From Chloroflexota bacterium (lineage in GTDB: Bacteria > Chloroflexota > Dehalococcoidia > Bin125): a stretch of DNA of 64,000 bases. A model generated the notes under the pieces. That model did not search any database, was not told where the DNA came from, and saw only the letters and a list, made by a program, of their open reading frames with translations. Of this stretch, positions 30,627 to 36,825 are shown piece after piece (the stretch's first letter is position 1; every line of letters starts with the position of its first letter). Location of the stretch: contig QGNQ01000008.1 of assembly GCA_003228175.2 (NCBI GenBank), positions 1,354 through 65,353 of the forward strand, read 5' to 3'. The position numbers and the translations under genes are program-made.

Positions 30627-31520
30627 ATGAGCGTGCTCGTAGGCCGGTCCACGCGCGTCTTGATCCAGGGACTGGGCGGCGAAGGCCAGAACCAGATCCG
30701 CCGCTCCCTTGACTACGGCACCAACGTCGTCGCCGGCGTGCACCCGTCCTTCCGTGGCGGCACGAAGTTCGAGAGCTTCCCCGTCTTCAACACCGCCGAA
30801 GAGGCCGTCGCCAAGACCAAGCCCAACGTCTCCATCATCTTCGTGCCCGCGCCCGGCGCCGCCGACGCCATTTTCGAGAACATCGCCGCAGAGATCCCAC
30901 TGATCATCTGCATCACCGAGGGCGTGCCCGTCCAGGACATGGTCGCCGTGCGCGCCGCCCTGGCCCAAAGCAAGAGCCGCCTGATCGGCCCCAACTGCCC
31001 CGGCCTCATCACCCCCTCCGCCAAATGCCGCGTGGGCATCATGCCGCCCGCCGTCTTCAAGCCCGGCCGCGTCGGCGTCGTCTCGCGCTCCGGCACCCTC
31101 GTCTACGAAGCCGTCGACCAACTCACCCGGCTGGGCATCGGCCAGTCCAGCTGCGTTGGCGTCGGCGGCGACCCCATCATCGGCACCTCCCAGGCCGAAG
31201 CGCTGGAGATGTTCAACAACGACAAAGCGACCGACGCCGTCGTCCTCATCGGTGAGATCGGCGGCACCGCCGAGCAGGCCTCCGCCGCCTACATCAAACG
31301 CCACATGCAGAAGCCCGTCGTCGCCTTCGTCGCCGGCGCCACCGCCCCTCCCGGCCGACGCATGGGCCACGCCGGCGCCATCATCGAAGGCGCAAGCGGC
31401 ATCGCCGCCGCCAAGATCAAGGCCCTCTCCGCGGCCGGCGCCGTGATCAGCAAGAGCCCCGCCCGCATCGGCGTCACCATGCAGAAAGTCCTCCGCGAAA
31501 AGAAGCTCCTCAAGGACTAA
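30627..31520 (+). CDS. sucD: Succinyl-CoA synthetase alpha subunit
   Basis: [37 protein letters not shown]. Confidence 0.93.
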
Positions 31521-32170
31521 CGATCGCCCGTCGGCGCGAGGGGCTTTGGGCGCCTCTCCCCCAGGCGAGCAAGCCCGGGAATATGGCGGACAACTCGCCT
31601 CCACGCCGACTCATCCGGTGTCGCAATCTCGAGCAGGCTGCTTGCCATTGAATCCAGCAGCCGGTTCATTTCCTGCATGTCGGCGACCAAGTTGTCGTAG
31701 CTCTCGAACCGCCGCTGGAGTCCCACTGGGTCCTCGCCCGCGTTCGATGGTTGCGCAATCTCATGCTCGTACCAGTGCCTGAACCGGGCCTGCCAACGCG
31801 TCAGGTGTCCGCGAATCACGTCGTTCTGCACCCGAAGTACCAAGTTTGCCAAATCCGGATCGGGCTCTCGGGGAGGGATTGAGTCAAGCAGTGACCGAAT
31901 CCGCGGAAATAACTCGTAGAGCGAATCGTAGACTTCGACGATGAGGTCATGTTCAGGATCGAACGGGAGCGCCGCTTTGCGGGTCCGAAGCTCCACATAC
32001 AAGGCCCATGCGACGTTCCGCTCCGGCCGGCTCGCCTCGAACGTGAAGTTCGCGAGGCCCGGAATCGAGAGTGTCGCTGACGAAAGCGCCAACCTGTTCA
32101 CGGCCAGCAGAAACAAGAAGAAGGCCGTCGTGACCACGACAGCTAGTAAAGCAAACGCCCACCCGGGCAT
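31517..32170 (-). CDS. Hypothetical single-pass membrane protein (217 aa), partner of the TIR-like gene
   Basis: N-terminal [23 protein letters not shown], then a helical W/R/H-rich domain with no recognised family. Low-GC DNA. Starts 9 nt after the TIR-like stop; its stop overlaps the sucD stop (CTAA). Confidence 0.6.
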
Positions 32171-32179
32171 CCCGCAGCC

Positions 32180-32599
32180 CTAGCGGGCGCGGGTTGCGGC
32201 GGGTCGATTCTGAGCAGCCCACTCGATCCAACCCGCGAAGTTATCGGGCTCCCATCCGCCAACCGCGTTCGACGGAATGCCCTCCGGAACACGACCAGCC
32301 GTCCCCTTGAGCCTGATCCCCAGGATGCCCTTGCCTTGGCGTCGACTCTCAGCGATCTCCCATTTCACCCACTTGCTGTCGGCGGTCTTATCGCCGATCA
32401 GCACGATCGTGACGGAGGCAGACGTCAGGTACTCATCCCTGATCACTCTCTGCACGTACGGATCGTCCGTGGATTGGATTCGTCGATCGAGTTTGTGGTT
32501 GTAGAACTCGAAGCCGTCCAGGATGTTCCGCAACCCGAGAAACCCGTTCACCTGCTGCGTGTCGTCGTGGCTGAAACTAATGAAGATTCGGCGCTTCAT
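32180..32599 (-). CDS. TIR-like domain protein (DUF1863 / ThsB-like)
   Basis: MKRRIFISFSHDD.., ..VTIVLIGDKTADSKWVKWEIAES..GKGILGIRL; start set at ATG 32599 (track start is 32665). Confidence 0.65.
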   Translation of the reverse strand: MKRRIFISFSHDDTQQVNGFLGLRNILDGFEFYNHKLDRRIQSTDDPYVQRVIRDEYLTSASVTIVLIGDKTADSKWVKWEIAESRRQGKGILGIRLKGTAGRVPEGIPSNAVGGWEPDNFAGWIEWAAQNRPAATRAR

Positions 32600-32758
32600 T
32601 GATCGGCTCGCTTTCGCGCCCACACTAGCACAGGCGTTCTTGCCCAGTCCGTCACGGACCCCCACTACTGCCCCAACGCGAAGTCGACGAACTCCTCGAT
32701 CACCGCCACGATCTCCTGCTACCTCAAGCTGGCGGGCCTACCATCGGTTCCTCTCCCG

Positions 32759-33220
32759 CTACTCCCCCTCCCCCTCCACCCCGACCTTCAACCGCTCCAG
32801 CACGACCGCCACCTGCCGGCTACCCCCGCGACGCAACGCGAACGCCAACGGCCAAAACAGCCGCAAGATCGGACCGATGCGAATGTGGAACGCCAGCTCC
32901 ACCCGCGTGGCCCCTGCCTCGGCATCGCTGAACCGGTACTCCACCCGCACTGCCGGTCCCTGCTCGCCCGACGGCTGCGAGAAGTAGACGAAGCGCTCCC
33001 CCAGCTCGACCTCCGCCACCTCCAGCCTGTAGTCCACCAGACCGCCGCCCTCCCGGATCGACTGCGCGTACGTCGATCCGGGCTGCCCGCGCGCGCCGCT
33101 CAGGCGTCGCACCTCCGCCACGCTCAACAGCCAGCTCGACTGCCGCTCAAGGTCGGCCGTGAAGCGGAAGACATCCTCCCGCGGTCGCCCAATCGTCGTC
33201 TTGGCGCGGAAGGCGGGCAT
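32759..33220 (-). CDS. SRPBCC (START/polyketide-cyclase-like) family protein
   Basis: 153 aa; ..IGRPREDVFRFTADLERQSSW.. pattern; start overlaps the stop of the upstream hydrolase. Confidence 0.6.
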   Translation of the reverse strand: MPAFRAKTTIGRPREDVFRFTADLERQSSWLLSVAEVRRLSGARGQPGSTYAQSIREGGGLVDYRLEVAEVELGERFVYFSQPSGEQGPAVRVEYRFSDAEAGATRVELAFHIRIGPILRLFWPLAFALRRGGSRQVAVVLERLKVGVEGEGE

Positions 33221-34490: not shown

Positions 34491-34532
34491 CCCCAGCCGA
34501 TCAGCCCCAGCCGATCACCCCCAGCCGATCAC
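34491..34532. repeat. 14-bp tandem repeat CCCCAGCCGATCA(N) x3
   Basis: Units at 34491, 34505 and 34519; the last overlaps the stop codon (34529-34531) of the lipoprotein hydrolase gene. Confidence 0.85.
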
Positions 34533-36511
34533 GAAGCGCTGATAAACGGCGACCACTCCGCGCAGCAGCCCGGGCCGATCGTGAACACCTCGCCCGTCGC
34601 CGCATCGATCACCAGCACCCCCACCGAGCGATCGACACGGCTGAGCGAACTGAACGAGATGAACCGCGAATCCGGCGACCACTGCAGATCGAAAAAGATC
34701 AGGTCGGAGTCCTGCACCAGCAGTCGCGTCGCCTCGCTCTGGATATCGCTGATGAAGATCCCGTTTGCGCCCTCCGGCGGGCCCGACGTGACCCAGGCGA
34801 TCTGGTCGCCACCCGGCGAGACGGATGCATCGAAGGGCACACCCGGCAGCGTCAGCCACTCCACCAGCGCCTCCTGCTCCGGCGAGCCAATGTAGAGCTT
34901 GTTCGTGTAGCGCACCCAGAACGCGTTGTTGCTCGAGTTCGCGAACCAGTCGTACTCGTCGGGGAAGATCGTCGAGTACTCCAGCGGCACGCATTCCCCG
35001 CCCACGCAGACCGTGGGCGGCTCATCGATCTCCGGCGCCGCGAAGACGAACCCGGGTGCCAACGTCGTGGGCAGCAGCAGCAGAACCTCGCCAACCTCCC
35101 GACTCAGCAGCAGCGTGTCGTCAGGCGATTGCAGCCCCGTCGTGGTCGGGCTGTCGCTGAGCACGCCCGCGTACGGGGCCAGCAGCGTCGGTCCCAGCAG
35201 GTTGACCACCGCGGGCGTCGCCGGCGCCTGCGCGACGCCCTCCGGTACGACCGAGAACGACAGCACGATGCCATCGTTGGAGAACTGCATGTCGAAGAAC
35301 TGGGGCGCGATGCCGTCCGGCAGGAAGTCGAACGGGATACGCACCTCCCCGGGGGGTTCCGTCGTCAGGTCCAGCAGGATCAAGGCGCCGCCCGTGCCGC
35401 CGCCGCCCGTGCCGACGCCAACCGTGGGGCTGCTGGGCAGCCAGATCACCTCCTCCACATCGCCCTCGAACTGCCGCGTGATCACGAACTCGTCGCTCTG
35501 GAACGGATCGACAATCACGACCTGGTCGCCCCCATCACCGGGCGCGATCAGCGCCAGCGCGTAGCCAGACAGCGGCGCGCCAGCGGGCCGATTGCCGTCC
35601 TCGGACGCAACCGGTTGCTCGTCCTCGGCCTGCTCCGCTTCCACCGCGTCCGACTCCTCATCGGCGGCCTCCGCCTGCGCCGCCGACTCCAGGTTGTTGA
35701 CCTCCCCCGCCGCGATGTATCCGTCCGGATCCTCGGCGAACGCGTACAGCATCGGCTGCACGATTGGCCCCCACACGGGGTCCTGCGCCAGCGTGTTGCC
35801 GTGCAAAGCCGTCTCCAGGATGTCGAGCCGGGCGGGCCCCGTGGCCATGTCGAAGTACCGCTGCGAGAAGTCGGGCGCGGCCATGTCGTCCGCCCCCACG
35901 ATGAACAGCTTGGGCACCGTCACGCGGTCGTAATTCTCCAGCGCATCCAGCCCCTGAAAGCGGTTCGGGCTGGAGATCGCGAAGATCGTCGTGATGTCGT
36001 CCCGGTCCGCCGCGACCTGGATCAGACTCGTACCACCCATGCTGGCGCCGCCGGCGTGAATCACCGTCGCGCCGTTCGCCTTCGCGTAGTCCAGCGCCGC
36101 CAGCCACTCCCGCCAGATCTCCTTGGTCGCGTCACGCTTCGAATTGTTCACCGTGTTGCAGCCCGACTCGCCGTGGCAGCGGAAGTCCCAGGTCAGCACC
36201 GTGTAGCCGCGTGCCGAAAATCCCTCCACCATCTGGTCCCAGTCCCGGCGATTGCCCGTGAACTGGTGCCCCATCAGCACCCACTGATCGCCGCCGCGCC
36301 GTACCTCCGCCTCGATCTCAACGCCGTCGCTCGACTGCCACGTAAACACCGTCGCGTCCGGACGACGCTCGCCACTCCGGTCGCCCGTCCCATCACCAGA
36401 CGCGGCATCCCCCCCGTCGTCCCCACCGCAGGCCGCGACCAGCAGCATGAGCGACAGCAGCAGAGTCATGCCCCCCCGGCGCGCCGGGGACCGTCCAAAT
36501 CGTCGCCGCAT
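34529..36511 (-). CDS. Lipoprotein: N-terminal alpha/beta hydrolase (paralog of 33220..34437), acidic linker, C-terminal beta-propeller-like region
   Basis: Start ATG 36511: MRRRFGRSPARRGGMTLLLSLMLLVAACGG (lipobox). TWDFRCHGESG..GGASMGGTSLI..ILETALHGN. C-terminus ..DQIAWVTSG..FDLQWSPDSRFISFSS (TolB/WD40-like). The track ORF to 36811 overlaps the tRNA and is rejected. Confidence 0.75.
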   Translation of the reverse strand: MRRRFGRSPARRGGMTLLLSLMLLVAACGGDDGGDAASGDGTGDRSGERRPDATVFTWQSSDGVEIEAEVRRGGDQWVLMGHQFTGNRRDWDQMVEGFSARGYTVLTWDFRCHGESGCNTVNNSKRDATKEIWREWLAALDYAKANGATVIHAGGASMGGTSLIQVAADRDDITTIFAISSPNRFQGLDALENYDRVTVPKLFIVGADDMAAPDFSQRYFDMATGPARLDILETALHGNTLAQDPVWGPIVQPMLYAFAEDPDGYIAAGEVNNLESAAQAEAADEESDAVEAEQAEDEQPVASEDGNRPAGAPLSGYALALIAPGDGGDQVVIVDPFQSDEFVITRQFEGDVEEVIWLPSSPTVGVGTGGGGTGGALILLDLTTEPPGEVRIPFDFLPDGIAPQFFDMQFSNDGIVLSFSVVPEGVAQAPATPAVVNLLGPTLLAPYAGVLSDSPTTTGLQSPDDTLLLSREVGEVLLLLPTTLAPGFVFAAPEIDEPPTVCVGGECVPLEYSTIFPDEYDWFANSSNNAFWVRYTNKLYIGSPEQEALVEWLTLPGVPFDASVSPGGDQIAWVTSGPPEGANGIFISDIQSEATRLLVQDSDLIFFDLQWSPDSRFISFSSLSRVDRSVGVLVIDAATGEVFTIGPGCCAEWSPFISAS

Positions 36512-36685
36512 CTCGCTCCTCCTCCTGCACCGCACGTCGCGCCCCATGGTAGGGCGAGCGCCCACTGTCGCGCCCCGGCGACCCCCAAGCCCCACCCACA
36601 TCGCGCCGCCAAGGCGTATACGCCGCCCGTCCCCTGCGGGCTCTCCCCATCGCCGCGGCCTGGAGCGGCTGGTAACATCCGCGAC

Positions 36686-36775
36686 GGAGGGTTCGCATAG
36701 TGGCCTAGTGCGCCCGCCTGCTAAGCGGGTTTCGGGGAGACTCGATCGAGGGTTCGAATCCCTCACCCTCCGCCA
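36686..36775 (+). tRNA. tRNA-Ser (anticodon GCU), long variable arm, encoded CCA
   Basis: GGAGGGT acceptor stem pairs with ACCCTCC; anticodon loop CU-GCU-AA; variable arm TTCGGGGAGACTCGATC; T-arm GAGGGTTCGAATCCCTC; then G-CCA. Confidence 0.9.
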
Positions 36776-36825
36776 CTCGGCACTCCAACGCGCCCAACGG
36801 CCAGTTCCCAACGGGGCCCAACCCG

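Follow-up and report, generated by a model that had tools for sequence, protein, structure and literature searches.

The window analyzed here is a stretch of 64,000 nucleotides (nt) from contig QGNQ01000008.1, part of a Chloroflexi metagenome-assembled genome (MAG), and it carries a two-gene cassette that, judged by homology, is very probably a type VI Thoeris anti-phage system. An identical protein, recorded as DK306_000827, identifies the host as a Chloroflexi MAG. Both genes lie in the same orientation on the minus strand. The first, thsB (32180..32599), encodes a ThsB-type TIR protein, the putative signal synthase and phage sensor, while the second, a thsG-like effector gene (gene 2, 31517..32170), encodes a protein of 217 amino acids (aa). 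Sequence inspection shows that a spacer of 9 nt (32171..32179, minus strand) separates the stop of thsB from the start of thsG at the operon junction, and the TAG stop of gene 2 (complement of 31517-31519) shares 2 nt with the TAA stop of the convergent gene sucD (31518-31520). An earlier reading made from the sequence alone, here called the original prediction, had described two open reading frames (ORFs) of 139 and 217 aa in this arrangement, overlapping stops included, and its coordinates were reproduced. It considered the cassette a possibly undescribed pairing of a TIR sensor with a membrane effector. That architecture holds, but pairs of this kind have already been described as type VI Thoeris. 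The defining features found in the cassette are a TIR of the ThsB type that bears the expected Glu, an effector homologous to ThsG, and the adjacency of two co-conserved genes.

Translated from its ATG, the thsB product has the N-terminus MKRRIFISFSHDD and comprises 139 aa. An in-frame GTG at 32665 would lengthen it to 161 aa in the mechanical ORF list, and the 139-aa form is kept in a relative on a closely related Chloroflexi contig (L004). The Pfam family ThsB_TIR (PF08937) matches the protein with an E value of 1.5e-21 (77 bits, cutoff 21.2), as do the PADLOC models ThsB1 (3.7e-17) and PDC-M50B (3.2e-17). Relatives in the PDB are 8fz9, which is the best, 8wcf, and the Bacillus cereus ThsB (BcThsB) entries 6lhy and 9b7d. 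These family matches, together with the alignment to solved ThsB structures, confirm gene 1 as a TIR protein. The stretch WVKWEIAES of the window protein aligns with WVRYEIMKS of BcThsB (6lhy/9b7d), with WVKYEIERA of 8wcf and with VDWEISAG of a verified type VI ThsB, placing Glu81 of the WEI motif (codon GAG, 32357..32359, minus strand) at the Glu position of TIR NADases and cyclases. We take this position to be the catalytic Glu, equivalent to E85 in BcThsB. The assignment of gene 1 to the ThsB/DUF1863 type with its Glu retained, as first proposed, was therefore confirmed.

A preprint of December 2025 (Yirmiya et al., bioRxiv 10.64898/2025.12.03.692087) defines eleven verified types of Thoeris. 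There, type VI consists of ThsB and ThsG, the latter annotated as DUF6650 with or without N-terminal transmembrane (TM) helices, and 255 such operons are counted. The type VI signal is given as 2'cADPR, an isomer of cyclic ADP-ribose (cADPR), which cells carrying only the TIR gene make upon infection. Added 2'cADPR is reported there to arrest growth of cells with a TM-type ThsG of the gene-2 family, and verified type VI members from distant hosts have this signal in common.

Gene 2 can be connected to these verified systems by three lines of evidence. Table S2 of the preprint lists a verified type VI system on scaffold Ga0209396_1000232 (L095), where the gene following ThsB encodes a 214-aa single-TM protein, the 'DUF6650 and TM' form of ThsG. 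This protein falls squarely within the gene-2 family (4e-76 with the family hidden Markov model, HMM), and BLASTP of the window gene-2 protein against it gave 35% identity over 136 aa with an E value of 8e-30. Several TIRs that adjoin members of the gene-2 family share 57-85% identity with the ThsB of this same system, the verified "Gammaproteobacteria scaffold" system. The third line runs through Escherichia coli, where the type VI ThsB of the preprint was traced to the same operon in a P2-like prophage of strain A14 (L093). Comparison by hhalign of the gene-2 family profile with the 243-aa TM partner of the A14 ThsB gave 98.1% probability, and comparison of the 74-sequence gene-2 family alignment (A1) with a 23-sequence alignment of the E. 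coli ThsG family (A3) gave 98.6% (E 8e-16, 148 columns), with the motifs in register. An HMM of the E. coli-type ThsG matched 72 of the 74 gene-2 relatives and none of 74 reversed controls, the window protein itself scoring 4.4e-10. Because of this homology to the E. coli ThsG, the identity of the partner TIRs to a verified ThsB and the match on L095, we regard gene 2 as a ThsG homologue and the pair as type VI.

Gene 2 had originally been left outside any family. As far as family databases go this was accurate, with gene 2 and its 74 relatives giving nothing beyond scattered chance matches in Pfam, PADLOC v2 and NCBIfam, yet the BLASTP match to a verified ThsG shows where it belongs. A Pfam scan for DUF6650 (PF20355) found no match in gene 2 or the 74 relatives, and a precomputed PF20355 annotation was present in none of 77 gene-2 homologues. 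This absence could be listed against a type VI assignment, but it carries no weight: the same scan also misses the verified ThsG (L095:3513-4154) and proteins with a precomputed PF20355.5 annotation, and is thus uninformative on membership.

The description of gene 2 as a single-TM protein with a helical domain was upheld by both hydropathy and structure prediction. The sole Kyte-Doolittle peak above 1.6 corresponds to an N-terminal TM helix at residues ~4-24 (32099..32161, minus strand), modelled by AlphaFold2 (AF2) as a helix at 3-27. The AF2 monomer built from the 74-sequence alignment (mean predicted local distance difference test score, pLDDT, 89.5; predicted template modelling score 0.75) contains this TM helix, a beta-hairpin at 31-45 and four long helices (48-63, 77-96, 107-139 and 158-183). 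The conserved cytoplasmic domain spans residues ~46-185 (31616..32035, minus strand) according to alignment A1, the AF2 model and the alignment to verified ThsGs. Most family members end near residue 185-190 in alignment A1; the window protein continues as a lineage-specific C-terminal tail, residues 186-217 (31520..31615, minus strand), which runs to the sucD stop, is present in L004 and L174, and has a pLDDT that drops to 70-79. All residues invariant across the 74 sequences (A54, R64, D75, R92, N116, R120, L123, W133 and Q152 in window numbering) are kept in the window protein, and the cytoplasmic domain carries candidate signal-binding residues on the evidence of conservation. The window protein departs from the family consensus at two near-universal positions, reading SLY for SWY and RGH for RPH. 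Foldseek of the AF2 model against the PDB and BFVD returned no match with E below 0.1, so that the fold has no solved relative there; the top matches, PA28 and Vsp among them, are generic helical bundles, and a profile search of PDB sequences gave only coiled-coil noise.

The gene-2 family is large and widely distributed. An exhaustive search (E up to 1e-3) yielded at least 594 clusters at 50% identity, the typical protein being ~215 aa, and a motif-seeded scan located relatives in 287 species-representative genomes, with hosts in Pseudomonadota, Bacteroidota, Saccharibacteria, Melainabacteria, Spirochaetota and Thermotogota, and one Heimdallarchaeota MAG. Pairing was examined with purpose-built HMMs for the TIR and the gene-2 family, run on six-frame ORFs of 80 species-representative loci with 5-kb flanks. 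A ThsB-type TIR was found within the flanks at 73 of the 80 loci, mostly at most ~125 bp from the gene-2 family gene, and when the TIR was taken as the starting point, a ThsG-family ORF lay within 600 bp in 56 of 80 loci. Both gene orders occur, the strand is usually shared, and a second ThsB sometimes lies between the two genes. At seven loci (L031, L035, L069, L070, L080, L081 and L087) no ThsB-type TIR was detected in the 5-kb flanks. Some of these are near contig ends, and others may represent TIR partners missed by the HMM or orphan effectors. The refuting outcomes named with the original prediction did not materialize, in that the TIR fold is confirmed, the pair is co-conserved and no housekeeping role is apparent for gene-2 homologues.

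Some loci of the family have two to four ThsB genes, and ThsG-family genes partner several distinct ThsB clades. On the Aureispira plasmid NZ_CP133672.1 (L090) four consecutive TIR genes are followed by one ThsG-family gene, and at L159 the order is ThsB-ThsB-ThsG, downstream of a type III-restriction-like helicase. On a plasmid-like contig of Sagittula, the neighbours of the gene-2 homologue include another TIR gene, a second one, and an Eco57I/XhoI restriction-modification system, while another locus of the family adjoins a type III restriction-modification system. From their gene content, the contexts of the family in other genomes look like defence loci.

Many bacterial TIRs are NADase effectors, and the roles within the window pair could in principle be reversed, with the TIR depleting NAD+ and the membrane protein acting as its sensor, anchor or regulator in a non-signalling system that would be no true Thoeris. 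We consider this improbable. Several loci combine multiple ThsB genes with one ThsG, which is the Thoeris pattern, and a Pfam scan of the 139-aa window ThsB detected no extra sensor or regulatory domain. The preprint leaves such an arrangement possible for unverified configurations, but reports that TIR-only cells of verified members yield 2'cADPR and that added 2'cADPR arrests cells bearing the system.

Several points weigh against assigning the cassette to type VI, or at least against extending every property of that type to it. Type VI Thoeris is defined in a preprint, and among the five type VI systems tested there, two had no detectable 2'cADPR. PADLOC recognised no defence gene among the 10 neighbouring ORFs (~10 kb), and the window locus is thus not a defence island; the original prediction had likewise seen no SIR2/SLOG/Macro ThsA, CD-NTase, SLATT or nuclease nearby. 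The window ThsB shares only 34% identity with its counterpart in the verified system on Ga0209396_1000232, and the nearest of the other ThsG-linked TIRs, L004 excepted, do not exceed 38% identity with it. Given these ThsB identities, the several ThsB clades that accompany ThsG and the two systems negative for 2'cADPR, the identity of the signal is the least secure part of the type VI reading.

These same observations leave some room for a system of identical architecture in which the divergent ThsB clade of the window makes another signal, either a different cADPR isomer or an ADPR derivative, to which its ThsG is tuned. Besides the distance of the window ThsB from all relatives but L004 and the pairing of the ThsG family with several ThsB clades, the off-consensus SLY and RGH positions of the window ThsG would fit such a divergence, as would the 2'cADPR-negative systems and the finding, in the preprint, that a single TIR cluster can serve different effectors. 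However, the window ThsG keeps every residue invariant in the 74-member family, which argues for the same ligand class, and the verified members share 2'cADPR despite their distant hosts (Yirmiya et al.). A different signal therefore appears rather unlikely to us.

Under the type VI assignment a three-step mechanism can be proposed. ThsB, through Glu81, would sense phage infection and turn NAD+ into a cADPR isomer, most likely 2'cADPR if the window ThsB behaves like those of verified type VI systems. The signal would then bind the cytoplasmic helical domain of ThsG, probably in basic pockets at the contacts between subunits of a ring-shaped oligomer; conservation and the AlphaFold3 hexamer models of ThsG presented in the preprint suggest that these pockets are lined by family-invariant Arg, Lys, His, Asn and Gln. 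Finally, the N-terminal TM helix may compromise the membrane, leading to growth arrest or abortive infection, in keeping with the growth arrest reported for TM-type ThsG in the preprint.

The cassette is foreign in composition. Its GC content is 60.9%, compared with a window mean of 69.0% (standard deviation 2.5%, 1150-bp windows); among the 629 windows of this size just 2 have so low a GC content, and the lowest (60.3%, start 31601) lies inside the cassette. GC at third codon positions (GC3) is 0.73-0.76 in the cassette versus 0.85-0.92 in neighbour genes. Local values over 60 nt, originally counted by hand as 53%, 52% and 70%, were recomputed as 53.3% (31621-31680), 51.7% (32461-32520) and 70.0% (30901-30960).

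Comparison with L004, where a thsB-thsG pair occupies the same place, defines a variable segment (31517..33220, no strand assigned) between the stops of the convergent sucD and a gene for a 405-aa alpha/beta hydrolase. Nucleotide identity falls from ~95% to ~63% at 31515-31517, the sucD stop, agreeing with the predicted insertion exactly at this point, and the other breakpoint lies at ~33220, the hydrolase stop. The flanking SucC, SucD and hydrolase proteins are 95.6-98.8% identical between the two contigs (synonymous divergence, dS, 0.10-0.17), compared with 79% for ThsB and 66% for ThsG, for which dS is about 2. The window allele was also found in a second metagenome. From the sequence comparison, whole cassette alleles seem to have replaced one another at a fixed position where two convergent genes end. 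This pattern supports horizontal acquisition, as originally proposed from composition, but not a scenario in which the cassette was inserted once and then simply inherited vertically. At the borders of the segment there are neither flanking repeats nor an integrase or insertion sequence, and the nearest tRNA is ~4 kb off; a search for an empty site by exact-protein look-ups of SucD and SucC gave nothing or the same allele.

Ratios of nonsynonymous to synonymous divergence (dN/dS) between the two alleles are 0.07 for thsB and 0.11 for thsG, with dS saturated, and both genes are under purifying selection. These ratios bear on whether the pair might be a passenger that has no defence function or is decaying: a membrane-signalling module with a housekeeping role, or an inactive relic caught between sucD and the hydrolase gene. 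The lack of other defence genes within ~10 kb and of mobile-element hallmarks would be compatible with such a passenger. Yet both ORFs are intact, the catalytic and invariant residues are kept and dN/dS is low (0.07-0.11), while elsewhere members of the family are carried by plasmids, lie in a prophage hotspot or neighbour restriction-modification systems, and verified relatives defend against phage according to the preprint. A passenger is thus highly improbable. A more far-reaching scenario joins the question of the signal to that of the site: the divergent 139-aa ThsB clade and its off-consensus ThsG would signal without 2'cADPR, and the junction between sucD and the hydrolase gene would be a hotspot, free of mobile elements, that swaps Thoeris alleles between near-identical Chloroflexi genomes. 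We regard this combination as speculative and doubtful.

The variable segment holds one further gene beside thsG and thsB, an SRPBCC or polyketide-cyclase-like gene of 153 aa (32759..33220, minus strand; PF10604, E 4.5e-11), which has a native-like GC3 of 0.90 and no counterpart in L004, a contig that is syntenic in other respects. Upstream of thsB, the motif AAGAACGCCTGTGCTAGTGTG (containing TGcTAGTGT; 32621..32641, minus strand) is a possible extended -10 promoter of the thsB-thsG operon. It is proposed from its conservation, ~19 of 21 nt being common to the window and L004, the 5'-most bases excepted, while the rest of the spacer is poorly conserved; a scan with the sigma-70 consensus found no promoter. 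The sole tRNA in the 64 kb is a tRNA-Ser (gct) at 36686-36775 (plus strand), which overlaps the 5' part of ORF 34529-36811 (minus strand), and because of this overlap the upstream start listed for that ORF is probably over-extended.

The main consequence of the analysis is that a membrane protein at first deemed unassignable belongs to a named effector family, ThsG, which current Pfam, PADLOC v2 and NCBIfam scans miss. With at least 594 clusters and 287 species representatives, against the 255 operons counted in the preprint, unannotated type VI Thoeris is probably present in many genomes. The window pair extends type VI to a Chloroflexi MAG and to a divergent ThsB clade, and its locus offers a clean natural case in which one defence allele has replaced another at a fixed position in the chromosome. 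What is new lies in these three aspects, the divergent ThsB, the host and the allele replacement, rather than in the kind of system.

Several named systems were compared with the cassette. Type I, the canonical Thoeris, does not apply, given that gene 2 has no SIR2 or SLOG match and the 10 neighbouring ORFs have no PADLOC match, in agreement with the initial opinion that the locus is not canonical. The PADLOC candidate PDC-M50 resembles the cassette in that the window ThsB matches its PDC-M50B model (3.2e-17); gene 2 and its 74 relatives, however, match no PADLOC v2 model, PDC-M50A included, above scattered single chance matches. Literature searches on PDC-M50 and on Thoeris types above XI found nothing relevant.

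Type II Thoeris, in which ThsB is combined with a Macro-TM effector and the signal is His-ADPR, is similar in that a TIR signal synthase works with a small effector in the membrane that brings about death or arrest of the cell. Neither gene 2 nor its relatives gave a Macro-domain match in a Pfam scan, and the effector family is a different one. Type VII, composed of ThsB and a SLATT effector responding to canonical cADPR, likewise has a membrane effector with a ThsB partner, and the best PDB relative of the window ThsB, 8fz9, resembles a type VII ThsB listed in Table S1 of the preprint. However, neither gene 2 nor any of the 74 relatives matches SLATT, the gene-2 protein combines a single TM helix with a distinct cytoplasmic domain, and type VII was rejected because the effector is ThsG-like.

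The closest counterparts are the type VI systems themselves. In the type VI system of E. coli P2-like prophages (ACN001/S1-type; A14, L093), homology of the effector extends across the cytoplasmic domain of ~145 residues, and ThsB is adjacent. The E. coli effector differs in its length of 243 aa, its two N-terminal hydrophobic segments, its ~21-23% identity and its location in a prophage hotspot. In L093 (NZ_CP028760.1, 1667025-1673543) the pair lies 3' of DinI-family and small hypothetical genes and directly 5' of portal and terminase genes, and the A14-type thsB is carried by 42 of 5426 complete E. coli genomes.

Compared with the verified system on Ga0209396_1000232, the window ThsB is shorter (139 versus 186 aa) in addition to its limited identity, the window ThsG lacks the ~20 residues that precede the TM helix and carries its 32-residue C-terminal tail, and the window locus lies in a Chloroflexi MAG amid housekeeping genes instead of in a defence island. 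In organization the two systems are alike, each operon comprising two genes, one for a ThsB-type TIR and one for a protein of ~215 aa in which a single N-terminal TM helix accompanies the same conserved helical domain, and their ThsG proteins have the invariant motifs TRK..LxFD, EVYxS.Y, LTxWQxxxRxWY and Q..Y in common.

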